64,000 nt of DNA, taken from IMG/VR virus record IMGVR_UViG_3300045988_144754; one strand, 5' to 3'. A model generated the notes under the pieces. The model ran no database searches and was not told where the DNA came from. It worked only from the letters and a program-made list of their open reading frames with translations. Position 1 is the stretch's first letter; each line of letters starts with the position of its first letter. The position numbers were made by a program, and so were the translations under genes. Of this stretch, positions 216-51,667 are shown piece by piece. The DNA comes from a virus.

Positions 216-2531
216 TTATATGTTACTATTAATAGTCTTTGTATCTGATACGCACACACTACATCCGAATTGTGCCTGTCTGTCTACGTCGTCACGTGTT
301 ATAAGACAGTTCCGGCCAATCCCCTCATGCAGCTTATTCCATACAGCATCATCTTCGGCATCAGCCGATTGTCGCCACCACGACCATGAGCTGTTGCCCA
401 CGGTGTCGCTTATGTCCTCGCCATTGCGTAGCAGCGTTGCCTTCAGCGTCATTTCGCCCGAACCGTTAATCATCACCGTGCCCGTATCGCTCGTTATCAT
501 TATCTGATAAGCCACGCCGTCCTCGCCCTTGTCTCCCTTCTCGCCTTTGCTTCCAGATAGAACTTTTTTCCATTGTGTCGAGCCGTCAGAAGGCTCACCT
601 GTTACGTCCTCCTCTGAATTGGCAACACACACCCAAACGGCATTATTGTGATTTACTTGGTCGTTCTTATGATAGGTATTTCCTTCTACCCAGTCACCTC
701 TATAATTGATGATATTAATAGTACTGCCGTCATCCGAAATCAATTCAAAGTATGAGGAATTGATTTTCGTTCCACCCTTCGGTGAAGTCTCGAATACCGA
801 CAGAGATACTTCTTTGTTCTCGCCATTTACGCTTTTTGTGATAGTATGCTTGTACTCAGAGATATTAGCATAGCAAGCGATACGAGGAGCATAGTCGCCA
901 GTTGTCTCAAGGATAATCACGTTCTGCCTGTCCGTCTTGTCGTACTCAAGATTGCCATTACGATGTCTGTTGCCGTCCAGCACGATTGTGTCGCCCTCAG
1001 CAGGGTCTCCCTTTATCTCAACAGGCGCATTCTTCTCTGTATATCCGTCTAAGCCTTCGGAATGCTTGCCAACGACAATCCAAGCAAACGCCTGACCATC
1101 GTACAATTCCACCTGTTCTTCTCTCGTCTGCTCCTTACCAGCTTCGTCAAGATAAGTCTCCGTTTTAGTGCCGTATATCTTCTCATTTTGCGTAGAAACG
1201 CCACCATCAGGAATAGTACGCCAGTAACTCTTATTACTTGTATCACTATATGCTCCACCAGCCACAATCTCGCCAATAGTCTGACAGCGCACTTGGTCGC
1301 CCTCCTGCCAGTAGTTCATCGTGGCAGTAGTTCCGTTGTCAGCTAAGAGATAGCATTTCCAGCCAGCGCATTCTGCATCATCCGCAGTTGTTTCTACCCA
1401 AGATATAACACCGTCAGCAGATACCGATTCCTTGACAGGCACAACTTTGATAAGCTTGCTACCAGCTCCAGATAAACAGATGTTGCCTCCAGAATAAGAC
1501 AGCTTGCGTACATCTAATTCGTGGAATATCGCCTTGCCCCAGATGGTGAGGTTCGTAACGAAGGCGTGATATTTTCCGTTATCCTTCTTAACAGCGAAAC
1601 CCTGCTCTGCTTCGTTGTCGTAGTCGATGGACTGTAACGACTCAAAGATGGCACGTCCTGCCTCGTCTATCAACGCTCCTCCCTTACCAAAGTAAGCACC
1701 TCTGTTCAGCTTTACTAAAGCCTCGCTCACCAGTCCTTTGATAAAGGTAATCATGCCGTTTACCGTGTCATCATTCTTTTTGGATAAGAAATGGCGTACA
1801 CCAAACTGCCCAAGGAACTCAGGAGTAACCACTTTGTTGGCTGACGTATCATCGGTGTTTTCTGTCGCTACGCCAACGATTTTATGTCCATTCAAGAAAA
1901 GGGTGGCGATAGTGGCTGTCGCTGCCTTGAGCGTAGTAAATGCTGCCACAGAGATGGTCTTCAGGAACTTGATGGTGTCGTGTACTGACTCATATCTCCA
2001 CCACTGACCCTCGCCGCCGGAAGCTATCGCTTCGTCGGTGGCAAGAGAACCGTATTCCACAGTGAGAGTCCACTCACGATACTTTTCTATGATGTCCTGA
2101 TCGTTCTCATCCTTACCTACATTTTTGGTCAGGACCTCAGAGATTTCTCCTTGCAGATACACATAGTAATAGTCCTCGTTGCCCACCTGCTTGTCCGGAG
2201 ATGCAATAGACTTACCGTAGATGTCAATGCGCTCGCTGGGGAATACCACCATTGCCGTACCGTTGACGCCATTGCTGACGCGCGGAATGGCTACGTAAAC
2301 ATACTTAGCCTTTGCATCAGGAAAGAGAGAGGGATAAGCCACTAACGGCCAACGCTGATAGTTGTGCCCGGCATCGTAGCCCAGACCCTCAATGTCCTGC
2401 ATATAGCATAGAATAGAAGCACCACTCGCCACGCTACACTGGATGTAGTTAGGCTCACCCATTGCGTTGAGTTGGATATAGAGCGCACTGCTCGAAATCC
2501 AATAATTCGTAAGTTTGACTTCTGTTGCCAT
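216..2531 (-). CDS. tail fibre / receptor-binding protein with a collagen-like Gly-X-Y stretch
   Basis: 771-aa ORF with GSKGEKGDKGEDG near the C-terminus, which is typical of phage fibre proteins. It is the last gene of the minus-strand structural operon in the window. Confidence 0.55.
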   Translation of the reverse strand: MATEVKLTNYWISSSALYIQLNAMGEPNYIQCSVASGASILCYMQDIEGLGYDAGHNYQRWPLVAYPSLFPDAKAKYVYVAIPRVSNGVNGTAMVVFPSERIDIYGKSIASPDKQVGNEDYYYVYLQGEISEVLTKNVGKDENDQDIIEKYREWTLTVEYGSLATDEAIASGGEGQWWRYESVHDTIKFLKTISVAAFTTLKAATATIATLFLNGHKIVGVATENTDDTSANKVVTPEFLGQFGVRHFLSKKNDDTVNGMITFIKGLVSEALVKLNRGAYFGKGGALIDEAGRAIFESLQSIDYDNEAEQGFAVKKDNGKYHAFVTNLTIWGKAIFHELDVRKLSYSGGNICLSGAGSKLIKVVPVKESVSADGVISWVETTADDAECAGWKCYLLADNGTTATMNYWQEGDQVRCQTIGEIVAGGAYSDTSNKSYWRTIPDGGVSTQNEKIYGTKTETYLDEAGKEQTREEQVELYDGQAFAWIVVGKHSEGLDGYTEKNAPVEIKGDPAEGDTIVLDGNRHRNGNLEYDKTDRQNVIILETTGDYAPRIACYANISEYKHTITKSVNGENKEVSLSVFETSPKGGTKINSSYFELISDDGSTINIINYRGDWVEGNTYHKNDQVNHNNAVWVCVANSEEDVTGEPSDGSTQWKKVLSGSKGEKGDKGEDGVAYQIMITSDTGTVMINGSGEMTLKATLLRNGEDISDTVGNSSWSWWRQSADAEDDAVWNKLHEGIGRNCLITRDDVDRQAQFGCSVCVSDTKTINSNI

Positions 2532-2697: not shown

Positions 2698-3750
2698 TCA
2701 AAGTAAAAGCGAACCATTAATATCGATCACTACTTTAAACGACAAAGCATACATGTTGGTGTTGGTGTCATCCTGGATAGTGGTCTCGTCTTCCAAAAGA
2801 ATGGTGCATGGAATCCAAATGCCGTGCGATAGAATCCATGCGTGTTCGCTCATGGCAAACTCGTGCAGATACCAGTCGAGCCAACTCTCGTCGAGCGGGT
2901 CAGTAGTGAGATTCCAAGTTTCCTGATCATTCTGCTTCTTGACCGACGCACGAGAGAAGGAGTTAAAAGTCTCCTGCTTTGCCACAATATACGATTCTGT
3001 TGTAAGCGCCATCTTACGGCTGTAGGATTTCGGCAGACTGACACTCTCAAGTACACCAAACAGATTGATGAAGCGTATGGTGTAACGGTTGCTCGCCTCT
3101 GTAGCAGGAAGCGCATAGAGTTGGTGAGTACCGACGGTCTGCAGTCCTTCCTGCGTAATCTCCTTAGAGACAGACGTGGGAGGAACCAGGGTCGGACTGT
3201 TACTGAGCAGTTGTTCCGTCTCGTAGGGTGTAGTATAAATAAAGGTGTCACCCACAACGACGGGTTGCGGCAAAGTGTTCGGCTTTCGGGTGAAAGAAAT
3301 GACTCCCTTACTGGGTCCAGACTGAAGGCGCACCATATCAGAGAAAGCACCCGCAATGCAGCGAAGGTTCGTGTTGCCGGTTTCGTCGGGCTCTTGAGGA
3401 TAAAACACCTCGCCTACATTGGTAAATATCTCACCATTGTTATCCATATATTCATCGTAGGCATGGACGTACCAGCTCACGAAAGGATAGGTTGTCGGCT
3501 CGGGAGTATATTTATAGGAGTCGAGTGCCGCACGCAAAGCTGACGATACATCAAGCGATACATCAGTGCCCTCTTTGGTGACGGGTTCATTGAGTTTTAT
3601 GACATCATAGCTGCCGTCATTGTCGAACACGACCTCTACGACGACACGATGAAAAGAAGGCGTATTCTCAAAAGCTGACGGAGAGATGGTAAAAGTAATC
3701 GGGTTGCCAGCAAGGATTGAACCAGATGTAAGTAAAATTTTCTGTGCCAT
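2698..3750 (-). CDS. hypothetical tail-associated protein
   Basis: 350-aa ORF between the ACP gene and the tail-fibre gene, same strand, compact spacing. Confidence 0.45.
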   Translation of the reverse strand: MAQKILLTSGSILAGNPITFTISPSAFENTPSFHRVVVEVVFDNDGSYDVIKLNEPVTKEGTDVSLDVSSALRAALDSYKYTPEPTTYPFVSWYVHAYDEYMDNNGEIFTNVGEVFYPQEPDETGNTNLRCIAGAFSDMVRLQSGPSKGVISFTRKPNTLPQPVVVGDTFIYTTPYETEQLLSNSPTLVPPTSVSKEITQEGLQTVGTHQLYALPATEASNRYTIRFINLFGVLESVSLPKSYSRKMALTTESYIVAKQETFNSFSRASVKKQNDQETWNLTTDPLDESWLDWYLHEFAMSEHAWILSHGIWIPCTILLEDETTIQDDTNTNMYALSFKVVIDINGSLLL

Positions 3751-3813: not shown

Positions 3814-4062
3814 CTAAGACATTTTTTTCTCTACGATAGCTGTCACATCAGACACAAGTTGTAAGTCTTTTGCCTCTTCGGGCGAAATCTTGATATGGAA
3901 CATGGTTTCGGTCTGAAGAACGAGATCGAGAAAGTCGATAGACTCAAGAGCGAGATCATCACGCAGGTTGGAGCTGTCGGTCACTTCTGCTGTCGATGCC
4001 CAAGGTGTGCGCAGGCCTTCAACTATATTGAACACCCGCTGGCGAATATCTTCTTTGTTCAT
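3814..4062 (-). CDS. acpP: acyl carrier protein
   Basis: 82 aa. The motif DDLALESIDFLDLVL matches the ACP phosphopantetheine-attachment region (DLGADSLDTVELVM). Its start overlaps the KAS stop (ATGA). Confidence 0.7.
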   Translation of the reverse strand: MNKEDIRQRVFNIVEGLRTPWASTAEVTDSSNLRDDLALESIDFLDLVLQTETMFHIKISPEEAKDLQLVSDVTAIVEKKMS

Positions 4063-5273
4063 AATGATTGGAATTTAGAAATGATGAATGATGAATTGGT
4101 GCCTCCGAAGCCAAAGGCATTACAAAGAATATGGTGTGATAAGTACTCGCGTGACTGCATGACGAGATTGAGCTGTGGAAAAGCATTCTCGGCTGTGGTA
4201 GCCGCACCGAAGATAGTGTCTGTGTTGAGCATCATGGCGGCTTGAACGGCCTGCGATACACCAGCCATCCAGCACTCGTGACCCGTCATACCCTTGGTGG
4301 CTACGATATAAGGGCTCTCGGGGAACACCTTTCCGATGGCTTCTGCCTCTGCAGCATCGCCCTGCTCCGTACCTGTGGCATGGGCGAGGAGTACATCTAT
4401 CATTCCGGCATCGAGTCCAGCCGACTCTATGGCCTTAATCATTGCCACCTCTTCCTGATAAGCATCCGGGGTACAGATGCTTGTGCCGTTAGTGGAAAAG
4501 CCGTAGCCTGAAAGTTCTGCCACGGGCGAGACTTCATAATCCTCGAAACGCAAGCTGTCGGAAGGCTCAAGAATAACACAGGCTGCACCACCCGAAGGAG
4601 CAAGACCATTGCGGGCTTTGCCGAAAGGCTGCACCTTGTCGGGCGAGAAAACGCCCATGGCATCAAACGACAGCATGGAGAAGGGACCAGTCTCCTGTGC
4701 TCCAACGACAATCACCATGTCGGTTTGGCGCGCATCAAGAAGCATCTTGGCAAGACCGATGGCATGACCTCCTCCGGCACAAGCCCCGCTGACGGTAAGC
4801 GAGAGTCCTTTCAGTCCGTAGATAGAGGCGAGGCTCATGCTGACGGTGGAATTGAGTGTGCGGAACACTGCACCTGCCCCTAAACGTCGGGTGTCGCGCT
4901 GTGTAATGGCAGTGGTCATTGCCTGATAGTTGTCTCCCGCCGTAGAGTCGTTGCTGACGATGACCGATACATTGTGAGACTGCAAGAACTCGGGAAGAAT
5001 ATTGGCTTCCACCAGAGCCTCGTTGACGGCAGATAAGGAATATAGGGTCGGTTCGGAAAGACATTGCCGTTGACCCCTGGTGAGTTTTGAAAACTTCCAA
5101 GGGTTCGGATCATTTATCTTTCCGCACAGGTCGGACTGATAACCTTTCTCGCTGCGCGCGGGGTCGTGGTGCAGACCGCACTCTCCATACGCCAGCTTCT
5201 GTGCGACGGAAAAGGTATCGTTGCCAAGACTGGAAACAATACCTGTGCCTGTGATTAATATTTTTCTATCCAT
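4059..5273 (-). CDS. beta-ketoacyl-ACP synthase (FabF/FabB-like KAS)
   Basis: Active-site region GACAGGGHAIG, His motifs HATGTEQGD and KGMTGHECWMAG, and C-terminal NAFGFGGTNSSFII all match KAS I/II. I trimmed the start to the internal Met (MDRKILITGTGIVSSLGN), because the upstream extension overlaps the preceding gene. Confidence 0.8.
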   Translation of the reverse strand: MDRKILITGTGIVSSLGNDTFSVAQKLAYGECGLHHDPARSEKGYQSDLCGKINDPNPWKFSKLTRGQRQCLSEPTLYSLSAVNEALVEANILPEFLQSHNVSVIVSNDSTAGDNYQAMTTAITQRDTRRLGAGAVFRTLNSTVSMSLASIYGLKGLSLTVSGACAGGGHAIGLAKMLLDARQTDMVIVVGAQETGPFSMLSFDAMGVFSPDKVQPFGKARNGLAPSGGAACVILEPSDSLRFEDYEVSPVAELSGYGFSTNGTSICTPDAYQEEVAMIKAIESAGLDAGMIDVLLAHATGTEQGDAAEAEAIGKVFPESPYIVATKGMTGHECWMAGVSQAVQAAMMLNTDTIFGAATTAENAFPQLNLVMQSREYLSHHILCNAFGFGGTNSSFIISKFQSL

Positions 5274-5302
5274 GATTATGTTTGTTTGATTAAAGAATAC
5301 TC

Positions 5303-8116
5303 TTACAAGGCATAGACGGTCAGTTCTACCTCTCCAATGCCTTCCTTGGCCGTGATAGTTGTATTCACCTTGTCGATAAGACATTTCACACCTCCGATGT
5401 TCCACCACGTCTTCCAGTGGTTAGGTATGTCGGCTATCTGTGCGACAGAAGCCGAACAGCGGATGATGTACTTCTTGCGGTTAAGCAGGAAATAGGCGTA
5501 GGGCAGAATGAAGGTATCGAAAAGACCGCGTGAGCGTATCTTGGTTATCACATTGCCGTTAGTGTCCACCTCGTCGGGGGCGCAGAGTGAAACATCCTTA
5601 TATTCAGGCTTACTGAGCCATGACGGCTCTTTGAAAGCACGTATCTTGAGCGAGAAACGTTCACCTTTGCCTCTGCCTTCCTGAATACCATTATAGTCGA
5701 AGACATTGCCCATCATGTCAATAGAGTCGCAAGCAAGAGCATATTCGCCTGCTGCCGTGCGCCACTTGGAAGTACCGAAGTGGTCGTAGTTATAGTCATA
5801 GGGCTCTGTAGTTGCATTCGTACCGCCGCCTCGCATCATGGCCAAGGCAAAGCCCCATCGTGAATCGTCTTGAAGAGGCGAGTTGCCGTCTTCGGTGTTT
5901 GACGGGTCGTAACTTTCGACGAGTTTCAGAGACTGCTGCATGTAGAAATCGCAGAAAGGCGAGGAGATGGTCTGGTTGATGATTTGCTCGACAAACTCAT
6001 GCTCCATGTCCTCATCGACATAGGCGCAGAGGATAGGCTGTCCTTCCTTGATAACGACACCATAGGTTGTTGTCTTTGAATCGTCATAGTACTTTGCCGT
6101 ATGAGAGCCGTAAGCAGCCTCTATCTCCTTGAAATAGTTGACATCATTGAACGGCACGGGGGTGAAGTCGATGGTGATGTCGTGGATGAAGTCTTCATTC
6201 TCCTCGCTGCAATCGCCATACTCCACACCCTTGTACTGGCCTACCTCGAAAAGTACAGGTTTGAGGTCGGCTGTAGTAGTGGCGTCGCCATTCACCTTCA
6301 CGCGATAGGCATTGCCCGTCTTCGGGTCGATGTAGCATCTTTTATCGCCAGAACTTAAATTATGAAAGAAGTCAACGTAATCTCGATCGTAAACCGTTTC
6401 GTTGTCTCCACTTCCCGGTTCGGGATAGTCGATATAGTCGTAGTCGGTAGCATAGCCCATATTTTTATTCTTGCGGCTGTCCTTGACGTTCTGCTGCTGA
6501 TCCTTGGCATCGCTCTCTTCGGAGTATCGCATACGTACACCCGTTATCTTCTCGCTGACGGGAATGATAGAATGAATGTCTGCGCGGAACGTGAGTGCTG
6601 GCTGTCCACTCTCGCGAAGCACGTCACGGATGAGGTAGGCCGTGACTTTCTTTTGCTCATAGTCGTAGGAGAACTTGATGCCAAAGGCGCTCTCCAAAGA
6701 TGAGATAATCGTGCTGACACTCTCATCAGGAAAGTTGTCGCTGTTGGCCACCATATAGAGCACGTTGGCCTGCACGTTGAACTTAGAGATTTGCGCCTCG
6801 ATGCTGATACCTGTCACCTTGCCGCCCTCTTTTGTCGTCTCTCCCACCTGTATGTGTTCGGAAGTTCCTTCGTTAGTGGTAAGGGTGAGCTCGTTGACCG
6901 TCTTGTCCTCTGCCTTTACGATGTTGATTTTTCCACCACAACCGCGCGACTCCAACCAGGAGTTGATATGATCTTGCTTCTTGAAATAACCTTCCTTAAT
7001 CTCGCCTTCCTTCTTTTTCTTGGCGATGACTTCGGGGTCGTCCTTCTTGTAGTATGTTCCGTGATGTGGATGCTCTTTGGTATCGTAGGCGCAAACGGTG
7101 GTGAAGAAACAGAGGTGCTTCATATCCTCTATCTGCATCAGTGCCGACTTGTCGAAGGTGACACCCAAGTGAGCAAACAGGCAGTCGAGAAAATAGAGTA
7201 CATAGAAACAAATGCCCGACTGCGGACGGCGTGCGTCCAACACCCAATAGGGATAAAGATCTTCGTTAGTCCACTTGCAATCCTTTGTGCTGATAATGTC
7301 GCTCGATGTGGTGCCATCGTCTGCCAGTCCGTGGTGCTTGTAGCAGATACGGGCATTGCAATAGGCTGCGGGACGGCCTGCGCCATCAGTCTCGCCATAG
7401 GCTGCCGATGTGTTGATATAGTCGCCATTCTTGGCGATGGCGGGCTCGTTGACTGTATTGCCGTTGGGGTAGGATCGTGACGACTTTCTCTTGGCATCGG
7501 CCTTCATGTGTAAAGGAGAAAGAATGTTGGTGGTGTACTCCTGGCACGATGCAGGATAGGAGAAGCCAAGAGCCTGCGGTTCGAGCACTTTACTCACGCT
7601 TACGTGCTCGGCATGAATGGTTCGGGTGACAGTCTCATCATCCTTATGCTTACCTCCCTCCACGAATACACTGACATTTACAACAGGGTCGCTCTCGATG
7701 TCTACCCTTACATTGCCTATCTTCTCGCCGATGATCAATTCATCCTTGATGGGGATGTCACGGCAGTTTAGCGAACCGATGAGGTCGCTGAAACTCTGTC
7801 TGCCTGCATTAATACTCATAGAGAGCGAGTCTTTTATCTCTTCAGCATCCTGCATGACGAGCGTACCGTTGCGGAAGGGCAGTCCGTCGGCATGAATGCG
7901 CGTAGGCAAATGCTCCATGTTGACAGCACGAAACGATGCCCGCACGTCATCGATGTTCTTTACCAGCCATCGGTTGCCGTCGAGCGGAATGGAAAACGGA
8001 TAGGCGAACATCTCGTTGTCATTGAACACAGGGTTCTGGTCCTCTATATCGATAGAGAAATCATCGGGCAGCGACACGGGGCGGTCGTTGATAAGTATGG
8101 TGAGATGTGAGTTCAT
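5303..8116 (-). CDS. large virion structural protein (tail or baseplate candidate)
   Basis: 937-aa ORF in the structural operon upstream of the ACP/KAS pair. No recognisable motif. Confidence 0.45.
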   Translation of the reverse strand: MNSHLTILINDRPVSLPDDFSIDIEDQNPVFNDNEMFAYPFSIPLDGNRWLVKNIDDVRASFRAVNMEHLPTRIHADGLPFRNGTLVMQDAEEIKDSLSMSINAGRQSFSDLIGSLNCRDIPIKDELIIGEKIGNVRVDIESDPVVNVSVFVEGGKHKDDETVTRTIHAEHVSVSKVLEPQALGFSYPASCQEYTTNILSPLHMKADAKRKSSRSYPNGNTVNEPAIAKNGDYINTSAAYGETDGAGRPAAYCNARICYKHHGLADDGTTSSDIISTKDCKWTNEDLYPYWVLDARRPQSGICFYVLYFLDCLFAHLGVTFDKSALMQIEDMKHLCFFTTVCAYDTKEHPHHGTYYKKDDPEVIAKKKKEGEIKEGYFKKQDHINSWLESRGCGGKINIVKAEDKTVNELTLTTNEGTSEHIQVGETTKEGGKVTGISIEAQISKFNVQANVLYMVANSDNFPDESVSTIISSLESAFGIKFSYDYEQKKVTAYLIRDVLRESGQPALTFRADIHSIIPVSEKITGVRMRYSEESDAKDQQQNVKDSRKNKNMGYATDYDYIDYPEPGSGDNETVYDRDYVDFFHNLSSGDKRCYIDPKTGNAYRVKVNGDATTTADLKPVLFEVGQYKGVEYGDCSEENEDFIHDITIDFTPVPFNDVNYFKEIEAAYGSHTAKYYDDSKTTTYGVVIKEGQPILCAYVDEDMEHEFVEQIINQTISSPFCDFYMQQSLKLVESYDPSNTEDGNSPLQDDSRWGFALAMMRGGGTNATTEPYDYNYDHFGTSKWRTAAGEYALACDSIDMMGNVFDYNGIQEGRGKGERFSLKIRAFKEPSWLSKPEYKDVSLCAPDEVDTNGNVITKIRSRGLFDTFILPYAYFLLNRKKYIIRCSASVAQIADIPNHWKTWWNIGGVKCLIDKVNTTITAKEGIGEVELTVYAL

Positions 8117-11100: not shown

Positions 11101-12894
11101 CTACTCCTGTCCCTGCTTCGTGACGCCTGTCTTCGAGTTGTCGAGGGTGGTAAGCACCTCACGGTCTATCTGCCATTCGAGGTGTGGGTCCCATTCATTG
11201 ATTTCGTCGGTTACCTCCAAGGCGCGGAGCATGAGCTGCTGCAATGGGGCAAACTGTATCTGCTTGACGAGGAAACGCTCGCGGAGGTCAGTGCCGCCCG
11301 ATGAGGTTGCGTCGCCTGGGGTGTTGCCAATGAGCTTGGAGTCGAGACCCATGGCGAAGAAGATGATGCTTGTGATTTCCTGCAGCTCGGTCTTCTCGGC
11401 TTGCGCTTGCGAGTTGGCCTTGCTCTCTATCTCCACAATCTCCCACGCCTTGTGCTCCTTGCCGTCGGTGCCGTTGAACACGGCAGAGATGAGCGCCTGA
11501 CCTGCATTGTCGGGATTGGAGAGCCACGTGTTGATGTCGCTGAACACCTCCTGCTGAAGCTGCGCCATGGTCTTGGTCTTCTTGTCGCCCTGCTGGGTGT
11601 AGAGGTTCTTGAGATATTCCTGGTGAATGTAGATGACGCGACCGATGATGTTGGAGTTGCGCTTACGGGTGAGTCGGTCGTCGACGATGGTGAAGGCATA
11701 CTCGTAGATGCTTCCGGCAAAGATGCTGTGCCAAAGGGCATCGGCATAGTAGGGACCGCCGTAGTCGCGTGGCGACATGATGAAACGGGTGGGGCGGTCC
11801 TTGCGGCTTACCCGCTGCTGACGGGCACGGCGCACGGCGGCCTGGAGGTCTTTCACTGCCGACACGGTGGGAAGATAGGGCACGGCGGCGATGCTCTTGT
11901 CGAGGTCGGCGAACTGAGCGGTGCGGTCTTGCGTGGGGTCGAGCCACTGGTTTGACAAGTAGGCATAGTTGATGCGATAGTTGGTGTCCTGTCGCTCCAG
12001 TCGGGTGGTGAAGATGCTGCGGTGTTTCAGTCCCACTACCTTGGGTGTCCACTGGCTTGTGGGCACGGGTTTGCCTTCGTCGGAGAGTTGTCGCTGGTTG
12101 AGTTGCAGCTCGACGAAGCATTGCGACATGAGCGCCATGTCGCCCGCCATGTTGAGGAAGGTCTGCATCAGGTCGTTGTCCTTCATGAATTTCTTCACCT
12201 CGCGGTTGGTCTGTTCCCACTTGGCGAGGGCGTCCTTCAGGGCTTTCATCTCGTCGCTGTCCTTGGGCTGGCCTTCGGTCTGCTGACTGACGGAATGCAG
12301 AGGGTCGTCGGGGTCGCCGCTGATGCCGTTCTGCTGTTGCTCCTGAAGGTCGGCTTTCTCCTGTGCCTTGAGGTCGGCTATCTGTCCGCGGAGCAGTGTG
12401 CCGGCCGATGCGTAGGGGATGTATTTCTCGGTGATGTTGCCGCCTACGTACTGGGTGTAGTGGTACTTGGGCGAGGGTCCGTGGCCTACGAGTATCTTCT
12501 TGATGAAGTCGACACCGGCTGCGGTGAAGGGCGACATTCGTGAGAGAATCCAGACGAGGTTGGGCAGTCGGTTGCCCACGCCCCATTCCATGTAGCCCAG
12601 TCCGGGTGTTCCCACGCCGTTGGGCTTGGCCTTGTTCTCGCCGCCGCTGGAGGCGAAGATGGTGGAAATCTGTCGTCGTGCTCCCGAAGAGGTGGTCGAG
12701 CTGCCCTGCGCTGTCATGCCGGCTGTCTCGAAGAGCATGGAGCGGACGTAATCGTTCCATGAAAAGACTTGAGCGCCGCTGTTGGGATTGATGAAAGCAG
12801 AGGGCGACACGGCCACATATCCATCGCGCTTCAGTTCCTCACTACGATCTTGGAACTGCTGTAAGTTGGTAACTCTGTTCTTGTTGCGTGACAT
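11101..12894 (-). CDS. hypothetical virion protein (portal-sized; assignment uncertain)
   Basis: 597-aa ORF. Preceded by a TAnnTTTG promoter-like box in the duplicated module at 12925..13010. Confidence 0.4.
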   Translation of the reverse strand: MSRNKNRVTNLQQFQDRSEELKRDGYVAVSPSAFINPNSGAQVFSWNDYVRSMLFETAGMTAQGSSTTSSGARRQISTIFASSGGENKAKPNGVGTPGLGYMEWGVGNRLPNLVWILSRMSPFTAAGVDFIKKILVGHGPSPKYHYTQYVGGNITEKYIPYASAGTLLRGQIADLKAQEKADLQEQQQNGISGDPDDPLHSVSQQTEGQPKDSDEMKALKDALAKWEQTNREVKKFMKDNDLMQTFLNMAGDMALMSQCFVELQLNQRQLSDEGKPVPTSQWTPKVVGLKHRSIFTTRLERQDTNYRINYAYLSNQWLDPTQDRTAQFADLDKSIAAVPYLPTVSAVKDLQAAVRRARQQRVSRKDRPTRFIMSPRDYGGPYYADALWHSIFAGSIYEYAFTIVDDRLTRKRNSNIIGRVIYIHQEYLKNLYTQQGDKKTKTMAQLQQEVFSDINTWLSNPDNAGQALISAVFNGTDGKEHKAWEIVEIESKANSQAQAEKTELQEITSIIFFAMGLDSKLIGNTPGDATSSGGTDLRERFLVKQIQFAPLQQLMLRALEVTDEINEWDPHLEWQIDREVLTTLDNSKTGVTKQGQE

Positions 12895-12924: not shown

Positions 12925-13010
12925 TGTTGTTGCTTTTTTCGACTACAAAAGTAGGGAGAATTATTTTAATGGTACGGACATGAGTCAGAACAGCGAGAGC
13001 TGCACGGCTC
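12925..13010 (-). repeat. duplicated promoter module carrying a 3' relic of a PF01555-type methyltransferase gene (copy of 14822..14905)
   Basis: About 80% identity to the 3' end plus downstream region of 14877..15647. Encodes ...AVQLSLF* (compare AQLTLF*). Contains TACTTTTG, a TAnnTTTG -7 box. Confidence 0.55.
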
Positions 13011-14135: not shown

Positions 14136-14690
14136 TTACGACTCAATCTCGGGAGGGTTGCCACCAGGCTTCTGCTCGCCGCCACCCGTGGTGCCGGAAT
14201 CGCCTGTGCCGGGAGCTGCGGGAGCATCCGTTGCAGCAGCATTGCCCACTCGCTTGAACGAGCCGTGCTGTGCGAAGGCAGCGTTGAACTTCTTGGAGAA
14301 GTCGATGGCAACACCTGCGGTGAGGTCCTTTGTGGTGAGGTCGGCGGCGGTAATCTCTCGGTTCACGTCAACGTCCTCGCCTGCTGCCTTACGTGCTTCG
14401 AGCTTCGCCTTGAGCTGGCTCTGAGTGAGCGAGCCGCTGACGGTAGGACGTACCGTCATGCCCTCGGCAGACACCTGTACCTTGGTGCCCAGTGCCAACA
14501 GAAGCGGCAGCTTTTTCTCCAACTGCGTCATCACGGCCATTACGTCCGCTGCGCCTACTGTAGAGTCCTGCGCCATGTAGTCGCAAAACTCAGGAAATGA
14601 CATCTGCTGCAAGTCAACGATCTGTGCGCTTGCCAGCTTCTCCTGTGTGAGGTGGTTCACACGAACTGCAATTCTTGTTTTAATTGCCAT
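14136..14690 (-). CDS. HU-like DNA-binding protein (Bacteroidetes type)
   Basis: N-terminus MAIKTRIAVRVNHLTQEKLA...FPEFCDYMAQDSTVGAADVMAVMTQLEKKLPLLLALGTKVQV resembles Bacteroidetes HU-family proteins. Low-complexity Gly/Thr-rich tail. Confidence 0.5.
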   Translation of the reverse strand: MAIKTRIAVRVNHLTQEKLASAQIVDLQQMSFPEFCDYMAQDSTVGAADVMAVMTQLEKKLPLLLALGTKVQVSAEGMTVRPTVSGSLTQSQLKAKLEARKAAGEDVDVNREITAADLTTKDLTAGVAIDFSKKFNAAFAQHGSFKRVGNAAATDAPAAPGTGDSGTTGGGEQKPGGNPPEIES

Positions 14691-14762: not shown

Positions 14763-14822
14763 ATGTGCTAACACTTTTCATCAAATGTGCTAACACTTTT
14801 CGTCAAATGTGCTAACACATTG
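14763..14822 (-). promoter_or_regulatory. three tandem 22-bp sites AATGTGctaaCAC (GTG-N4-CAC inverted-repeat cores)
   Basis: Three units at exact 22-bp spacing in the 5' leader of the operon starting at 14690. Same site family as 40356..40437. Confidence 0.5.
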
Positions 14823-14905
14823 CTTTTTTTCGACTACAAATGTAGGGAGAAAATTTTGAGCGGTGTGGACATAAATTCAGAACAGCGTGAGCTGTGCTTG
14901 CTCCA
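14822..14905 (-). promoter_or_regulatory. promoter module downstream of the methyltransferase gene (TACATTTG -7 box)
   Basis: Matches the Bacteroidetes TAnnTTTG consensus. Duplicated at 12925..13010. Confidence 0.45.
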
Positions 14906-15647
14906 ACTTGATGCGCTTGCAAGCCTTGTCGTAATACTCCTTGTTGAGCTCGAAGCCGATGAAGTTGCGCTTCTCTTTTATGCAAGCAATGGCGGTGGTG
15001 CCGCTGCCCATGCAGTTGTCTAATATGGTGTCGCCCTCGTTGGAGTAGGTACGGATGAGGTACTGGATGAGAGCGACAGGTTTTTGGGTGGGGTGGAAGC
15101 TGTTGTGAATATCCCTCTGAAATAAGACAATATCGGTTGGATATTTTTCGTCGGTTATAATATCCTTCACTTTGCCATAATTTCCGTAACATCTGTTGGT
15201 TTGCTCTTTCTCTTGCTTTCCTCTGCTGTGATTGCGTTCATGTGGAAGACATTTGCACATTTGTGGATGATAGGTGGGCTGTCCGTCGTAGAAAACGGAA
15301 ATAATCTCCGTTTGCTTTAGAGGCATCTTCTTTGTGTTCAAAAAGCCAGTTGTACGGCATTTATCCCACGTGATATTATAGCGCCACATCTTTTCATTGC
15401 TCATCATCAGTTTTGCCGTGAACATACCCTGTCCGAACAATATTATAGCCGCATTGGGCTTACTGATACGAAGATATTGCTCCCATAAAGAATCAAGTGG
15501 AATAATACTATCCCATCCTCCTCCTTCGCTCTGCTTATTGAGGACACCATACGGCAAATCACACACAATGCAATCCACGCTTCCGTCGGGAATCCTTTTC
15601 ATTCCTTCGAGGCAGTCTTCATTATATATCTTGTTCAGCTCTATCAT
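14877..15647 (-). CDS. DNA methyltransferase, N6-adenine/N4-cytosine (PF01555-like, beta class)
   Basis: CIVCDLPYG (DPPY-type motif IV) near the N-terminus and NCMGSGTTAIA (motif I) near the C-terminus. Paralog of 42701..43450. Confidence 0.8.
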   Translation of the reverse strand: MIELNKIYNEDCLEGMKRIPDGSVDCIVCDLPYGVLNKQSEGGGWDSIIPLDSLWEQYLRISKPNAAIILFGQGMFTAKLMMSNEKMWRYNITWDKCRTTGFLNTKKMPLKQTEIISVFYDGQPTYHPQMCKCLPHERNHSRGKQEKEQTNRCYGNYGKVKDIITDEKYPTDIVLFQRDIHNSFHPTQKPVALIQYLIRTYSNEGDTILDNCMGSGTTAIACIKEKRNFIGFELNKEYYDKACKRIKLEQAQLTLF

Positions 15648-15654
15648 TGTCTTT

Positions 15655-16689
15655 TTACTTTTTCCTTATCTTTTCCATTTCCTCATTCTCCACCGTCAGG
15701 CGTTCCAGGTGCTCCAGGACGAGGGAATAACTCTGGTTGTTCACCTGGTCCTCCGTCAGACCGGCATACTTCTGCATGGTGGCGGTGGTGGCGGTGTATA
15801 TCTCCAAGGGCGTGGAGGGCTTCTGCGACTTGATGGGCTGCACCTTGAACACATGGCGATAACGATGAGCGAGGGTGTGCATCACGCCCGTCCACCAGAA
15901 GAGTATCACCTGCCATGCCGTTTCGGGGAAATCGCGGAAATAGGACTGGTTCGTCTCCCACTGGTTCAACTCATAGTGGAAGTCGTGTTTCACCATGCCC
16001 GTGTTGCTGTCCACATAGTCGGTCGTGCCGTTGAAGATGGTGGCGAGAAACATCGTCCGGGCAGCGTTCACGTTCTTCATCTGCCGCTGCATCTGCTCGT
16101 CGGTGAAAGTGCCGCGCTGCTGCATCTTCAAGAGGCTGTTGCTCAGTCGGGTGTAGGTCTGCATCATGTCGGAGGCGAAGCGATACTGCGCCCACGAAAA
16201 TCCGTCGAGGTCGTTGGCGGGTCCGCTGAACACCTTCTTGCGTCGCCACCATGCGCGGCGTCGCCGGATGACAGGGTAGGGGAAGCGGGTGAGAAAGGCA
16301 CCGTTCTCGTTGTCTATCCAGTCGAGCAAGCCTGCTCCCTGAGCGATGTACTCTGCCGACTTTCGGGCGTCGGTCTTCGCCTTGGGCGTCAGCCAATAGT
16401 TGATCTGCCACAGATACAGCGGAAAGGTGTCGTTGTCCTCGTCGTCCTGCATACGGCAGAGGTAATACTGCTCGCTGATGTCGAGGCGAGAGTCGGGCAG
16501 CGCCACTATCTCCAAGCCCGACAGGGCGAAGAAGATCGCCACCTTCACGTTGCGCATGTCGAAGGGGTGGTATCTGTCCTGCCGCTCCACCTGCTCGCGT
16601 ATCACGTCGGCTATCAGCTCCAGTTGTTCCGTAGTGCAGAGATTCCAATGTCGGGGAAGATGTAAGTCTATTTTTTTTGGATTGTTCAT
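15655..16689 (-). CDS. hypothetical protein
   Basis: 344-aa ORF. Confidence 0.45.
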   Translation of the reverse strand: MNNPKKIDLHLPRHWNLCTTEQLELIADVIREQVERQDRYHPFDMRNVKVAIFFALSGLEIVALPDSRLDISEQYYLCRMQDDEDNDTFPLYLWQINYWLTPKAKTDARKSAEYIAQGAGLLDWIDNENGAFLTRFPYPVIRRRRAWWRRKKVFSGPANDLDGFSWAQYRFASDMMQTYTRLSNSLLKMQQRGTFTDEQMQRQMKNVNAARTMFLATIFNGTTDYVDSNTGMVKHDFHYELNQWETNQSYFRDFPETAWQVILFWWTGVMHTLAHRYRHVFKVQPIKSQKPSTPLEIYTATTATMQKYAGLTEDQVNNQSYSLVLEHLERLTVENEEMEKIRKK

Positions 16690-16909: not shown

Positions 16910-17464
16910 CTACCAGGTGATTTCTCTCCCTCGGTTGTCGACGAGCGAGCCGTATCGGATGCCGTCGAGCCGACGAAGCCATCCGGCGAGGAACCGCTTC
17001 TGTGACGGTTTGTTCTTCGCCAACCGCTCGTAGTACAACTTGCGGCGAGCCTTGAGGCGAGAGAAGAAAGCTTCGGGGTTCTGTCGGTTCAGGGCGGCGA
17101 GGGTGTTCTTTCCCATGATGCCGTCGGCTTTCACACCCAGTATGGCTTGGGTGATGGTGACGGCGGGCGTACCACTGATCCACAGCCAGTCCACAAGGAG
17201 GTTGGCGATGCTCTGGTCATTGATCTCGTCGGCACGGCAGCGACGCCAGTAGCATCGGCGCAGGATTTCCGTAGCATCAGCATCTGAGATAAGTCGGAGG
17301 TCGCGCACGTCTATCCGTCCGTCGCCGTTCTTGTCGTACCCCTGCTGTCGCCATGTGCCGATGGTCACACCCTTGTTGGTGGCACCGCCACGGTCTTTCG
17401 GGTCGTTCACGAAACCGCCCTCAAACGAGAGAATGAATTTAGCTAAAGGTTCAATCTTTACCAT
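16910..17464 (-). CDS. endolysin (GH108 N-acetylmuramidase with PG_binding_3-like domain)
   Basis: ILSFEGGFVNDPKDRGGATNKGVT matches the GH108 signature. The C-terminal region resembles a peptidoglycan-binding domain. Confidence 0.75.
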   Translation of the reverse strand: MVKIEPLAKFILSFEGGFVNDPKDRGGATNKGVTIGTWRQQGYDKNGDGRIDVRDLRLISDADATEILRRCYWRRCRADEINDQSIANLLVDWLWISGTPAVTITQAILGVKADGIMGKNTLAALNRQNPEAFFSRLKARRKLYYERLAKNKPSQKRFLAGWLRRLDGIRYGSLVDNRGREITW

Positions 17465-20376: not shown

Positions 20377-21285
20377 TTATCGCATGGCTTCCTCAAGAGT
20401 TCTAATATAAGGTATGGACTCGTTGCGCACAATATCAAGAAAAAGTTGTGCCGACCGCTTCATCGGCACGTCCTTCATCCAGTGGACATTGCTCATCAGG
20501 TCGTGCTCAAGCCCCACGATGGGACGGACGGTAAGGGTAGGGTGGTTCTTTAGGTACAATTTAGGCATGAAAGTGACACAATGGGATTCTTCCACGATGG
20601 CAAGGTCCTCGTTGGGGTCGCTCACAATACATTTTACATTCAGTTTCATAAAATCGTATTTCAGATATTTCTGAAAGGTATTGAACACCCTTTCGCCTAC
20701 ATCGGGCATAATCACGTTGTGCCTTAACAAATCCTCGTATGACACCTTTTCCAGTCGGGACAAAGGATGGGTGTCCCGCATCATCGCATAGATACGGAAA
20801 GGAATACAGGGCTCAGACTCGATGCCCTCATTCTTGTAGGCAGTGTTCAGAGTAAAGGCGAGGTCGAGGGAGTGGCTTCTCAACAGGTGGTTCAGACTCG
20901 TCGCCTTGGTAAACTCGGCGTTGATTCTTACATTCGGGTATCGTTCCATGAAGATAAGTGCCGCCATCCGAATATAAGGTGCGATAAAAGAGCCTACACC
21001 TATCCTCAGCTCGCCCACAAGGCAGTTGTTGAGCGCGTTGATTTGTTCCTTGCAGTCGTCCGTCTGCTTCAGTATCTCCTTGGCGCGAGGCAAAAGCGCC
21101 TCGCCACTCTCAGTGAGCATAATGCTGTGCGAGGTGCGGATAAGCAACTTGCACCTCAGTTCATCCTCAAGAGCCTTGATGTGTTGACTGATGGCGGACT
21201 GAGTGACACAACAGCGCATGGCTGCAATACTGAACGATAAAGTTTCGGCTACATATACAAATGAGCGCAAATGACGAAGTTCCAT
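20377..21285 (-). CDS. LysR-family transcriptional regulator
   Basis: N-terminal HTH MELRHLRSFVYVAETLSFSIAA...QSAISQHIKALEDELRCKLLIRTSHSIMLTESGEALL is a canonical LysR substrate-binding-type regulator. 302 aa. Confidence 0.8.
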   Translation of the reverse strand: MELRHLRSFVYVAETLSFSIAAMRCCVTQSAISQHIKALEDELRCKLLIRTSHSIMLTESGEALLPRAKEILKQTDDCKEQINALNNCLVGELRIGVGSFIAPYIRMAALIFMERYPNVRINAEFTKATSLNHLLRSHSLDLAFTLNTAYKNEGIESEPCIPFRIYAMMRDTHPLSRLEKVSYEDLLRHNVIMPDVGERVFNTFQKYLKYDFMKLNVKCIVSDPNEDLAIVEESHCVTFMPKLYLKNHPTLTVRPIVGLEHDLMSNVHWMKDVPMKRSAQLFLDIVRNESIPYIRTLEEAMR

Positions 21286-23675: not shown

Positions 23676-25364
23676 TTAGAGAAGACCATTATCACGTTTA
23701 TACTTCTCGATAGCCTTCTTTGAGCCAACAGGATCTGAAGGGTTCCAAGTTGGGTAGGCTGTATGAGGTTCGGTTACCTGTGCGCCTTCTCCGTTGTTGC
23801 CTGGTGCAGTGCCTGCCGCAGGCTCCTTGCCAGCCTCTTCGGTAAGGGCGGCTATCTGGGCGTCCTTGTCGGCAATGGTCTGCTCGGCTGTAGCGAGCGA
23901 TTCCTTTGCGCCTTTCAGTTCCTCTTCGACCTTGGCTTTGTCGGTTGTCAGGGCAGCTATCTCCTCATCCTTTTTGGCAGTAAGAGTTGTCAGTTCCTCG
24001 TTCTTCTTGGCGAGAGTTGCAGCCGTTTCATCAGAAAGAGTCTTAGCTGCGGCGAGTTCTTCCTGAAGAGTATCAAACTTAGCCTGAAGGTCGGCGAGCT
24101 TTTGCTCTGCTGTAGTGGCTTTCTGCTTTGCATCGGCCACAGCCTGCTCGTTGGTGTTCAACTTGGTTTCGAGAGAGTCGAGCAAGGGAGCATTCATGAA
24201 TGTGCCTTCTGCATTGACTTCAATCTCGCCTTCCTTGATACCACAAGCAGCGCTAATCAATGGGTAATTTTTCATATCAATATGAGTTTGGTTAAAATTG
24301 TTGTTGTTATCCTTTTTTGAAGATGGAGCGGTTGTTGGCTCTTGTGCTGAACTGGCTACTGTAGCTGGGGTAGAGGCGTTCTTAGGCTCTTTTTCTGTGC
24401 CTTCGGTATCAGTACCTTGGTCATCAGTGGTGATTTCTCTCTTGATAGGCTTTGCTGTACCATTGTAGAGATCGAAGCATCGGTGGATGCAATCAAGGAA
24501 AGTAGATTGACCATCCACCAAAATACCCTTTGCCTCTTCTGCTGTGAATATCTTTCCATGCAGATGTTCCTTTTTAGCTTTCGGGCAAGCCTTCTTTACA
24601 TCTCTGCGGAACTCTACGCCCAGTTCGGCCAACTCTGCCACGAACTTCTCCGTATTGCCGTCGTTGGCAATATCACGGAAATCGCGATTCTTATCATAAG
24701 ACTCCGGGTCGTAAATCTCGTGATAAGTCTCGTTAGTAAACTTGTTGGTACTGCCGTCGGCCTCAGTATAAAAAGCACCCATCACACCGATGCAGCCTAC
24801 ACCGTCCTTGGGGTGCATGTAATATCGCTCATCGCAGAGAGAAGCGAGATACATACCGGCAGAATAGCAGTCACCATCGATGAAACACAGAACTGGCTGA
24901 CCAAGTGAACGTGCATAATTGATGGCCTGTTCATAATCATTCTTAGCCCATGCTGTACCGCCAGGTGTGTCAACGATAAAGATATGACCACGACACAAAG
25001 GATGATTGGCTGCATTAATCATCATGTTACGATGATCGACGGAACCATACGAGCAGCCGCCGCCATTACGGGTGATAGGACCATCAACTGTAAGGACAGA
25101 GACAAAAGGAAAATTTTGTGCATTCTCATCTTTGAGAGCCCACTGACTTCTCACCTGATTACCATCCTCTGAAATCTGATATTCCTCGGGATAGTAGACG
25201 CATCCGTTCTCGTCTATAGCAGTGACAAAACCGCAAGTCTTCTGAGGCTTCTCGAAAGCAGCATGAGTGTTCAGGTTCTGCTCTAAGGCCTTACGTATTC
25301 CGTGTACGAACTCGGGGTTGATCATCCACTCCTTGTTGGTCATAATTTCAAAAAGACCTTTCAT
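23676..25364 (-). CDS. prohead protease (S49/ClpP-like) fused to a coiled-coil scaffold domain
   Basis: IVDTPGGTAW...CYSAGMYLAS matches SppA/ClpP-type serine peptidases. The C-terminal 180 aa are Ala/Glu/Lys-rich coiled coil. Confidence 0.6.
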   Translation of the reverse strand: MKGLFEIMTNKEWMINPEFVHGIRKALEQNLNTHAAFEKPQKTCGFVTAIDENGCVYYPEEYQISEDGNQVRSQWALKDENAQNFPFVSVLTVDGPITRNGGGCSYGSVDHRNMMINAANHPLCRGHIFIVDTPGGTAWAKNDYEQAINYARSLGQPVLCFIDGDCYSAGMYLASLCDERYYMHPKDGVGCIGVMGAFYTEADGSTNKFTNETYHEIYDPESYDKNRDFRDIANDGNTEKFVAELAELGVEFRRDVKKACPKAKKEHLHGKIFTAEEAKGILVDGQSTFLDCIHRCFDLYNGTAKPIKREITTDDQGTDTEGTEKEPKNASTPATVASSAQEPTTAPSSKKDNNNNFNQTHIDMKNYPLISAACGIKEGEIEVNAEGTFMNAPLLDSLETKLNTNEQAVADAKQKATTAEQKLADLQAKFDTLQEELAAAKTLSDETAATLAKKNEELTTLTAKKDEEIAALTTDKAKVEEELKGAKESLATAEQTIADKDAQIAALTEEAGKEPAAGTAPGNNGEGAQVTEPHTAYPTWNPSDPVGSKKAIEKYKRDNGLL

Positions 25365-27988: not shown

Positions 27989-28885
27989 TTAAATGTCAAA
28001 CTCATCACAATACTGGCGCATACGCTCGATGATGATGTTGCGTATCTTTTCGCCAATAATCTTTGCATTGGGATGCGGCGTGCCCGTCTTGCCATGGAAG
28101 CGAAGGTCAAGAATATGGCTCCAGTCGGAAAGCGTGTAGGTATATGCCACAACGGTATAGGTGTCGAGAGGCAGAACACCTCGTGCGTCCTGCGGCTTCA
28201 AGCCGGACTTCAGAAGTCGGTTGTAGCCCCACTCACACACTCGACATACAAGGCCATACACAAAGCGCTGCCAACGACTGCCTTCTGCGTGCCAATGCGG
28301 ACGTGCTATCTGCACGCCTCCCTTCTTCTCTAAATTGCAATAGCGTGTACTCTGTTCGGCGATGCTGTTGGGCGACGTGCGGTTGAGCTCACGCGATGTA
28401 CTTATCTGCGTGGTTACTACCATCGTCATGCGGATAATAGAGAATGCCTCCTCACACTCGTACTTCAGTGCCTTCTCGATAAACTCGTCTTCGCTGACAC
28501 CATACTGACTAAGCGCATTCATCATGTCCTCGTGCTCAAGCGCAAACTGAGTATTGGTACTGAACCATACCTTATGATTCTTGGTGGCATAGTTGATGTA
28601 AGGCGATGCCTCCAGATATGCCCAGATGTGGTTAGGAAGACCCCTTTCGTTGGGCATAAAGAAATAGACTGTGCCGTGACGAAACATCGAGCGATGTCCG
28701 CTGTCCCAGAAGTCCTTGCAACGTACCTCGTCACGCGTCTGGATGAAATTTTTCACTTCCTCTTCGGTCAATCCTTCTCCGGGCTGCTTGCCCTTTGCCT
28801 TGTAGCATATTCTGCCCACTCTTGCTATATGTTGTGCAAGAGTAGTCTGCTGCCACCATTCTACTTGTGGTTCGATGAATTTCAT
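27989..28885 (-). CDS. thyX: flavin-dependent thymidylate synthase (ThyX-like)
   Basis: GHRSMFRHG matches the ThyX HxSVxEH motif. RTSPNSIAEQSTRY matches the RHRxxSxxxxSxRY signature. Confidence 0.6.
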   Translation of the reverse strand: MKFIEPQVEWWQQTTLAQHIARVGRICYKAKGKQPGEGLTEEEVKNFIQTRDEVRCKDFWDSGHRSMFRHGTVYFFMPNERGLPNHIWAYLEASPYINYATKNHKVWFSTNTQFALEHEDMMNALSQYGVSEDEFIEKALKYECEEAFSIIRMTMVVTTQISTSRELNRTSPNSIAEQSTRYCNLEKKGGVQIARPHWHAEGSRWQRFVYGLVCRVCEWGYNRLLKSGLKPQDARGVLPLDTYTVVAYTYTLSDWSHILDLRFHGKTGTPHPNAKIIGEKIRNIIIERMRQYCDEFDI

Positions 28886-40355: not shown

Positions 40356-40437
40356 AATGTGCCGACACATTAAAACGAAGGTGTTAGCACTTTTTGCCAA
40401 AAGTGTTAGCACATTTTACCAAAAGTGTTAGCACATG
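40356..40437 (+). promoter_or_regulatory. four GTG-N4-CAC inverted-repeat sites at about 23-bp spacing
   Basis: aATGTGccgaCACATt, then three GTGttagCAC units, upstream of the PAPS-reductase-family gene. Confidence 0.5.
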
Positions 40438-41392: not shown

Positions 41393-41413
41393 ACAACACA
41401 AAACAATAACGAT

Positions 41414-41743: not shown

Positions 41744-41749
41744 GCGACA

Positions 41750-42031: not shown

Positions 42032-42072
42032 GACTGGAACTTTCATTATAAGCAACAAAAACTCTACACAAC

Positions 42073-42681: not shown

Positions 42682-42700
42682 TAGAAAAAAACAATAGAGC

Positions 42701-43450: not shown

Positions 43451-43484
43451 CAACATAACTAACAATTAACACAAAAATCAACAC

Positions 43485-43715: not shown

Positions 43716-43745
43716 GAAACACAACACAAAATCAGGATAACAACA

Positions 43746-51538: not shown

Positions 51539-51667
51539 TCTATAAATCCTTTTATATTTAATTAGAAACCAAAGATACAACCTCCGACATATTTCTGAGC
51601 CATATAAACGGTCACAGGGATGCAACCATCATAGGCTTCTTTCGGGATAATTCTCAATTTCATGTCT

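Follow-up and report, generated by a model that had tools for sequence, protein, structure and literature searches.

The stretch analyzed here, a window of 64,000 nucleotides (nt) from the IMG/VR virus record IMGVR_UViG_3300045988_144754, comes from a gut phage with a genome of roughly 100 kb and carries two paralogous methyltransferase genes on opposite strands, which we call MT-A and MT-B (Table 1). An initial annotation had described these two open reading frames (ORFs) as an inverted paralogous pair, and this is correct: both encode members of Pfam family PF01555 (N6_N4_Mtase), with matches of E 2e-32 and 113.2 bits for MT-A and E 4e-31 and 109.2 bits for MT-B (the curated threshold is 26.7 bits), and the whole proteins are 62% identical (BLASTP, E 1e-109). 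The exact MT-A and MT-B proteins are both found on one 102,542-bp human gut metagenome contig, with the same 27 kb spacing. The pair itself is ordinary, as phages often carry several orphan methyltransferases and paralogs on opposite strands need no special explanation. Do the two enzymes differ in specificity, how did they come to do so, and do they bound an invertible segment?

Table 1. Coordinates of the methyltransferase pair, its repeat arms and the other features of the window discussed in the text.
Feature	Position	Strand	Description
MT-A	14877..15647	-	256 amino acids (aa); beta-class N6A/N4C DNA methyltransferase; Pfam PF01555
MT-B	42701..43450	+	249 aa; paralog of MT-A with a different central region; Pfam PF01555
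N-end repeat arm, MT-A	15547..15664		Codons 1-34 plus 17 nt upstream; inverted pair with 42684-42801, 118 nt, 86% (repeat search)
N-end repeat arm, MT-B	42684..42801		Partner of 15547-15664
C-end repeat arm, MT-A	14879..15097		Codons 184-256 (HPTQKP, motif I, C-terminal helix); inverted pair with 43230-43448, 219 nt, 86%
C-end repeat arm, MT-B	43230..43448		Partner of 14879-15097
Variable middle, MT-A	15099..15545	-	Codons 35-183; motifs V-VIII and presumed target recognition domain (TRD) from about codon 120; TRD type 'cluster 4'
Variable middle, MT-B	42803..43228	+	Codons 35-176; TRD type 'cluster 8'
Array 1	14765..14818	-	Three exact GTGTTAGCAC, 22-bp pitch; between promoter-like box and HU-HIG gene
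Array 2	40359..40434	+	Three exact GTGTTAGCAC (40381-40434) and a degenerate fourth, GTGCCGACAC, at 40359; divergent intergenic region upstream of the plus-strand operon
Promoter-like box CCCTACATTTGTAGTCGAAAAAA	14825..14847	-	Contains TAnnTTTG; upstream of HU-HIG gene
Second copy of the box	12934..12956	-	Upstream of gene 11101..12894
Tail fibre	216..2531		
HU-HIG family DNA-binding protein	14136..14690	-	PF18291, E 5e-8; downstream of array 1
Endolysin	16910..17464		
Head protease/capsid-like	23676..25364		
ThyX	27989..28885		
Primase	29601..30686		
Tape measure protein	31581..37532		1983 aa
PAPS-reductase-like	40541..41392	+	PF01507, E 1e-13; first in the plus-strand operon
Small methyltransferase-like	42073..42681	+	202 aa, NPPY motif; weak Methyltransf_23; unrelated to MT-A and MT-B; directly upstream of MT-B
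Large terminase-like	43746..45740	+	Closes the plus-strand operon; weak phrog_2
C5-cytosine methyltransferase	52780..54096	-	PF00145, E 1e-49; phrog_116; outside the repeat

Both proteins show the permuted motif order of the beta class, with motif IV N-terminal, motif I C-terminal and the recognition region between them. In MT-A, DLPYG (motif IV) occupies residues 30-34, HPTQKP residues 185-190 and MGSGTT (motif I) residues 213-218; MT-B has DLPYG at 30-34 and MGSGTT at 206-211. Judged by the aspartate of motif IV, both are probably N6-adenine enzymes. The sequence matches of MT-A in the PDB are M.BceJIV, DpnA/M1.HpyAVI (deposited as DpnA), M.RsrI, M.MboIIA and CcrM, and the best match of MT-B is M.MboIIA (residues 1-235); the alignments to M.BceJIV and M.MboIIA span the full length. 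AlphaFold models have a predicted local distance difference test score (pLDDT) of 83 for MT-A and 76 for MT-B, and the top Foldseek matches of the MT-A model are 1g60 (M.MboIIA), 8urk (M.BceJIV) and 6pbd (CcrM), with E 1e-16 to 1e-18 and template modeling (TM) scores of about 0.7. The scaffold is confidently predicted in both models and the stretch from about residue 125 to HPTQKP poorly; this low-confidence stretch is where MT-A and MT-B differ most. The scores are low at residues 34-47 and about 140-170 of MT-A, and below 50 at residues 127-159 of MT-B.

The nearest relatives of MT-A and MT-B are all on uncultured gut phage contigs. Many cultured phages of Lactococcus, Staphylococcus, Geobacillus and Bacillus have a homolog about 50% identical that is listed as a DNA methylase, and a nucleotide search of cultured phages with the MT-A region gave distant methyltransferase matches only and no related genome. 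In a large protein database the homologs number thousands and are essentially unnamed, so that annotation gives no specificity.

The initial annotation had noted near-identical N- and C-terminal segments in the two proteins, and the alignment bears this out: 34 of 34 residues are identical at the N end and 67 of 73 (92%) at the C end. At the nucleotide level, where about 90% identity over some 110 bp had been claimed for the 5' ends, we measured 89% over 102 nt (codons 1-34), and the C ends are 86% identical across 219 nt. The middle, of about 140 residues, is 41% identical in protein and 51% in DNA. Between MT-A and MT-B the coding part of the N end has 11 synonymous and no non-synonymous differences, with a synonymous divergence (dS) of 1.09; the C end has a dS of 0.73 and a non-synonymous divergence (dN) of 0.06; in the middle dS is saturated and dN is 0.59. 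The longest exact runs shared by the ends are 32, 32, 26, 23 and 23 nt. Because the differences in the ends are nearly all synonymous, their nucleotide similarity is a residue of protein conservation and not of recent duplication or homogenization. One short piece of the C end behaves differently at the nucleotide level: the codons of the 15-nt stretch TATTACGACAAGGCT, which encodes YYDKA (14922-14936 on the minus strand, 43391-43405 on the plus strand), are kept in 66-69 of 69 distinct family genes, whereas synonymous sites beside it vary freely. This freeze may reflect a nucleotide-level constraint or a recombination hot spot.

Related genes number hundreds in IMG/VR as well as thousands in the large protein database. 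Window genes were mapped onto 115 IMG/VR loci (L-numbered below) and 119 full-length homologs were extracted. The genes fall into slots that can be named by the flanking window genes, each given by its first coordinate. Slot S1 is 11101>MT>9926, in the tail-side block; slot S2 is 42073>MT>43485>terminase, in an operon oriented opposite to S1. Several contigs carry both an S1 and an S2 copy, inverted and 36-44 kb apart. A slot holds one to three copies, and tandem copies within one slot are found in L004, L020 and L080. MT-B sits at S2; the S1 slot of the window has no methyltransferase, and MT-A is at a third site, S3 (15655>MT-A>HU), seen only in contigs of the same phage (L006, L117).

When the ends and the middles of these genes are compared, they tell different histories. 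At 80% amino acid identity the 119 middles, which include those of genes outside the phage group, form 30 clusters, and the ends within the phage group are 82-98% identical in nucleotides whatever the middle. Sliding windows between types give 85-98% in the ends and 25-60% in the center, with sharp boundaries near codon 35-50 and codon 180. The middle of MT-A is only 32% identical in protein to that of L097, with a dS of 0.11 at the N end and 0.41 at the C end; against L004_10801 the middle is 37% identical, with a C-end dS of 0.29 and dN of 0. Such end dS values, 0.1-0.5 between genes with saturated middles, show that ends can be much younger than middles. The middle type of MT-A (cluster 4) recurs in L001-L005 at 88-93% identity and is found at S1 and at the window's S3; that of MT-B (cluster 8) recurs in L080, L081 and L082 at 95%. 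A middle resembling that of MT-B (65-67% in protein) is also present in the distant methyltransferases L094 and L106, whose ends are just 52-62% identical in nucleotides; recognition types are thus older than the shared ends.

Recognition types are also shared between slots. Cluster 0 is represented 3 times at S1 and 34 times at S2, cluster 1 14 and 3 times, and cluster 3 5 times and once, and the cluster 0 middles of S1 (L009) and S2 (L012, L015) are 90-98% identical in nucleotides. The C-terminal tail, by contrast, tracks the slot and not the recognition type in 75 of 82 genes: ..EQAQLTLF ends 26 of the 27 S1 genes and ..E[ML][AM]QP[ST]LF 49 of the 55 S2 genes. The tail of MT-A is of the S1 type. 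In each of seven two-copy genomes (the window and six related contigs) the copies differ in middle type. Within-genome homogenization of the ends gave no clear signal: pairs from the same genome have identities of 0.80-0.94 (N end) and 0.86-0.91 (C end), at or just above the upper edge of the 5-95% range for S1 x S2 comparisons between genomes (0.79-0.94 and 0.72-0.90). At four loci the methyltransferase is accompanied at S1 by a g41414-like gene, and this two-gene cassette occurs at both slots.

Four side observations concern the wider distribution and state of these genes. Directly upstream of the slot-2 gene, L021, L025, L034 (about 10000-10230) and L098 (about 10000-10280) have distant methyltransferases (about 35% overall) whose backbones end in the same 30-45 residue tail (..KRNFIGFELNKEYYDKACKRI..), so that the tail module spreads beyond the family. 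L119-L121 belong to a different, integrase-bearing element, where a methyltransferase with a slot-2-type tail and a recognition region of the MT-A type (84% identical) is found close to a PAPS-reductase-like gene; the neighbors in L119 encode cellular-type domains (AsnA, DNA polymerase III gamma/tau). The pairing of the methyltransferase family with a PAPS-reductase-like gene thus recurs in unrelated elements. Two genes, L004 10001-10768 and L082 10001-10747, have in-frame stops at tryptophan codons (TGG>TGA at codon 45, TGG>TAG at codon 87); the stop-bearing gene of L004 stands in tandem with an intact copy of another recognition type. Stop-codon recoding was considered and rejected, as there is a single stop per gene and the neighboring terminase gene of L082 is free of stops; nonsense mutations or sequencing errors account for them better. 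Finally, gene blocks are reordered across L001, L049, L078 and L091 relative to the window: L078 has early-type genes between 15655 and 13247, and in L049 the 11101-MT-9926 unit lies within the head/lysis block. Such differences indicate that modules have been shuffled extensively in the group, independently of the methyltransferase repeats.

The incongruence between slot-specific tails and recognition types (judged by tails and dS), together with the occurrence of the same type at both slots, argues for exchange of recognition domains by homologous recombination. We consider it likely that MT-A and MT-B belong to a modular phage family of beta-class amino-methyltransferases whose recognition regions are exchanged in this way and which serve anti-restriction, and that they are not parts of a 27-kb switch. 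Members of the family share a catalytic and AdoMet-binding scaffold, to which the N end contributes motif IV and the C end contributes HPTQKP, motif I and the terminal helix, and differ in their central recognition regions; having different centers, MT-A and MT-B would most likely methylate different sequences. The possibility raised in the initial annotation that the two have diverged in target specificity therefore gains in likelihood, since the divergence sits in the TRD-bearing region, and the family-wide pattern strengthens it. Homologous recombination within the conserved coding ends, occurring repeatedly, would carry recognition regions from phage to phage and among two or three fixed slots of the genome. 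MT-A and MT-B, with the two other methyltransferases of the window, would then guard the DNA of the progeny against several restriction systems of the host. Such a role is the most likely one, given the family to which the enzymes belong, how variable the recognition region is and the nonsense alleles tolerated in relatives.

Several points weigh against this interpretation. Enzymatic activity and the difference in targets are, like the anti-restriction role, things that we infer, and the last, though most likely, is the usual assumption for phage enzymes of this kind. Specificity cannot be read from the MT-A and MT-B models, whose recognition regions have pLDDT values of about 40-60. The variable middle includes motifs V-VIII, so that not all of the divergence is in DNA recognition. 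MT-A lies at a private third site, which means that whole genes move as well as domains. Lastly, motif IV is D-L-P-Y in 69 of 69 distinct family genes, with leucine replacing the first proline of the canonical (D/N/S)PP(Y/F); being invariant, this is a family trait and not decay. It sets the family apart from the solved and cultured-phage PF01555 enzymes (M.MboIIA, M.BceJIV, M.RsrI, CcrM), which have DPPY but are alike in Pfam family and fold.

It is possible, though we would not call it probable, that the conserved ends are kept as portable recombination handles that allow cassettes to be exchanged between co-infecting genomes and between opposite slots. The tail found on unrelated backbones, the methyltransferase and g41414-like cassette present at both slots and the frozen 15-nt stretch all fit this reading. 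If true, it would mean a recombinase-free diversification of anti-restriction specificity, with rare inversion of the segment as a side product.

Inversion had a larger part in the initial annotation, which took the repeats for its substrate; we found little to uphold this. Such a proposal holds that the inverted methyltransferase ends, perhaps with the arrays described below, drive inversion of a 25-27 kb segment and that the genome exists as two isomers. Three inverted repeat pairs (73, 118 and 219 nt, 84-86% identical) do flank the segment, and a crossover would keep both methyltransferase genes intact as chimeras. Recombination in these ends is, moreover, evident over evolutionary time, also between oppositely oriented slots, which implies that the copies do pair and that crossing over would flip the intervening segment. 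The repeats are, however, 11-14% diverged, with 32 nt as the longest exact run, and no site-specific recombinase was recognized: among about 60 window ORFs none matched an invertase, integrase or recombinase (Pfam and/or PHROGs), although many small ORFs had no match at all and absence is thus unproven. All contigs that carry the exact proteins (6 for MT-A, 10 for MT-B) are 50-200 kb long, and each protein has a single neighborhood in a listing that separates distinct contexts of an exact protein; gene order is stable. A crossover between the copies is expected to give a hybrid flank pattern, such as 11101>MT>43485 or 42073>MT>9926, but among the 76 genes in related loci with informative flanks on both sides there was none at which an S1 flank faced flanks of S2 only. 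No sampled genome has an inversion product as its consensus, though rare isoforms may occur within a phage population. That the genes face opposite ways follows from their operons, MT-A being in the minus-strand late/structural block and MT-B in the plus-strand modification/packaging operon, and both arrays are oriented alike with respect to the genes that follow them, as expected of promoter-proximal operators. Two independent contigs, L006 and L007, break at the same nucleotide within the C-terminal repeat, which could hide alternative junctions, but beyond the break L006 matches neither methyltransferase copy. All told, we regard a switch of this kind as very unlikely. The phage Mu G and P1 C segments and the hsdS shufflons offer the obvious comparison: there too, inverted repeats in coding sequence (for hsdS, in specificity genes) flank a segment, but those systems have a dedicated recombinase, short conserved crossover sites and both orientations in sequence data, none of which was found here.

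The breaks just mentioned deserve a separate description. In L006 (about 9263; 3300014943_000026) and L007 (2197; 3300030040_000137), which come from two different samples, the match to MT-A is lost just after GGCAGCGGCACC, in motif I. L007 ends at the break and the stored region of L006 runs 28 nt further in unrelated sequence. As L006 is from the same phage and ends inside MT-A it was examined as a candidate inversion junction and set aside, because these last 28 nt match neither copy nor the rest of the window and are uninformative. The repeated conserved end likely breaks assemblies at these points; the L006 break probably reflects either this or a trimming boundary.

Two further explanations concern the origin and the purpose of the pair. 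A recent duplication within the genome, followed by rapid divergence of the recognition region in place under diversifying selection, would account for ends that are near-identical in protein around a middle with a dN of 0.59, and tandem pairs of family members are present in L004, L020 and L080. The end dS of 0.7-1.1 nevertheless largely refutes a recent event, and each middle type has close orthologs (88-95%) in other phages. Middles like that of MT-B are found in distant methyltransferases with very different ends, and for both MT-A and MT-B the ends resemble those of same-slot genes with other middles in other genomes more than they resemble each other; we therefore hold duplication with divergence in place to be extremely improbable. 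The enzymes might instead serve the phage's own regulation, each specificity having its own task, for example by marking DNA that is to be packaged, replicated or transcribed late. Well-known orphan enzymes that act in regulation, such as Dam and CcrM, speak for this idea, as do the operon that MT-B shares with the terminase-like gene and the position of MT-A in the late/lysis block. Housekeeping of this sort predicts a fixed specificity, however, and no part of the gene varies more among close relatives than the recognition region; nonsense-bearing copies are tolerated in L004 and L082, and copy number varies from one to three per slot. A regulatory function is thus unlikely, and exchange of recognition regions among anti-restriction enzymes is the explanation that we prefer.

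The initial annotation had also described arrays of GTG-N4-CAC sites, inverted and next to the two methyltransferases. The arrays are indeed inverted, but only the first is adjacent, about 50 nt past the stop codon of MT-A, whereas the second stands at the start of the MT-B operon, 2.3 kb upstream of MT-B itself. Each repeated unit GTGTTAGCAC forms the center of an imperfect palindrome of 18 bp, and on the coding strand of the gene downstream both arrays read GTGTTAGCAC, with the same polarity. Their inversion follows from each being upstream of its transcription unit, the units being on opposite strands, and they look like putative operators of a common regulator. Among the relatives surveyed, the same GTGTTAGCAC site was seen only in L005 (6067-6098); L091 (8319-8350) and L075 (7617-7670) have arrays with other central bases (CCGA, CTTG), that of L091 being a GTGCCGACAC array at the same place as array 2, and arrays are absent from other relatives. 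Since they differ or are missing in relatives, the arrays are putative lineage-specific operators unlinked to the methyltransferases, and the pattern suggests a regulator whose specificity co-varies with the array sites. Between array 1 and MT-A lies a box of the form CCCTAC[AT]TTTGTAGTCGAAAAAA, which has two copies in the window (12934-12956 and 14825-14847; direct repeat D10), with none expected by chance. It contains TAnnTTTG, which we take to be the Bacteroidota -7 consensus, and on this basis the boxes are probably a phage promoter type.

As regards the wider context, nearly all window genes are on the minus strand, the exception being the plus-strand operon 40541..45740. Its order is PAPS-reductase-like gene, two small ORFs, NPPY methyltransferase-like gene, MT-B (the fifth gene), a 76-aa ORF and the terminase-like gene. 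The gene of the 42073..42681 type is kept upstream of the slot-2 methyltransferase in most relatives. MT-A comes 7 nt after a 344-aa ORF (15655..16689, minus strand). With the C5-cytosine enzyme, the window has four methyltransferase genes, and no tRNA genes were found in it. The segment between MT-A and MT-B had been said to carry the lysis, head, nucleotide and tape-measure genes, and we recovered all of these: endolysin, head protease/capsid-like protein, ThyX, primase and tape measure protein. In tblastn searches the terminase-like protein matched genes annotated as terminase large subunit in Microcystis and Porphyromonas phages, and it is nearest to phages of Porphyromonas, Polaribacter, Flavobacterium and Microcystis. 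These relatives and the TAnnTTTG box upstream of two genes make a Bacteroidota host likely.

Some other features of the window may be recorded here. A beta-ketoacyl synthase gene (4059..5408, minus strand; PF00109, E 2.5e-26, and PF02801, E 3e-20) stands in the tail block between 5303..8116 and 2698..3750; related loci that otherwise keep the gene order have no homolog at this spot, and it is an unusual auxiliary gene for a phage. A full-length LysR-type regulator (20377..21285, minus strand; HTH_1 and LysR_substrate) lies among the late and lysis genes and is conserved in L049 and L006 (63-94% identical). Four direct repeats of about 30 nt (..CCAAAATTGGACTATTTT..), at 16698-16879, occupy the gap between the endolysin gene and ORF 15655..16689. 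The small genes on the minus strand at 49.3-57.3 kb contain many short paralogous stretches, among them direct repeats D2-D5, D7-D9 and D11 as well as two genes with YopX domains (51077..51625 and 56949..57389); this early-gene block has grown by duplication.

Exchange of recognition domains has a precedent in bacterial Type III systems. In Helicobacter pylori, the recognition domains of mod genes move between non-orthologous loci by homologous recombination in the sequences of conserved motifs (Furuta and Kobayashi 2012, PMC3467074), and the mod gene of Haemophilus influenzae, with its hypervariable central region, is a related case (PMC1557822). The H. pylori case and the present one agree in several respects: both sets of enzymes are of the beta class, in which motif IV comes first, then the recognition domain and then motif I, only the center varies and the flanks are similar, the same recognition type occurs at different loci, and recognition and non-recognition parts disagree (there in trees). 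Unlike Mod, the proteins described here are small, stand-alone phage enzymes (about 250 aa, compared with about 400-650 aa for Mod chains in the PDB), with no res partner and no phase-variation repeat tract; they occupy two opposite-strand slots in a phage genome of about 100 kb, and exchange takes place across a gut phage population and not among bacterial strains. Profile scans found no restriction-enzyme or helicase domains in the neighboring genes, and this and the small size indicate that the mechanism is analogous and that MT-A and MT-B are not members of a Type III system. A literature search of incomplete coverage, and hence weak evidence of novelty, turned up no description of recognition-domain exchange among orphan beta-class methyltransferases of phages.

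Family-level shuffling between slots thus carries a known mechanism a modest step further, to gut phages, in this case a large group of uncultured phages of roughly 100 kb that probably infect Bacteroidota. There is a practical warning for assembly, in that the conserved ends break contigs. One scaffold carrying many recognition regions offers a natural set of domain swaps linking sequence to methylation motif, and the family provides a marker for arms races with the restriction systems of gut hosts.

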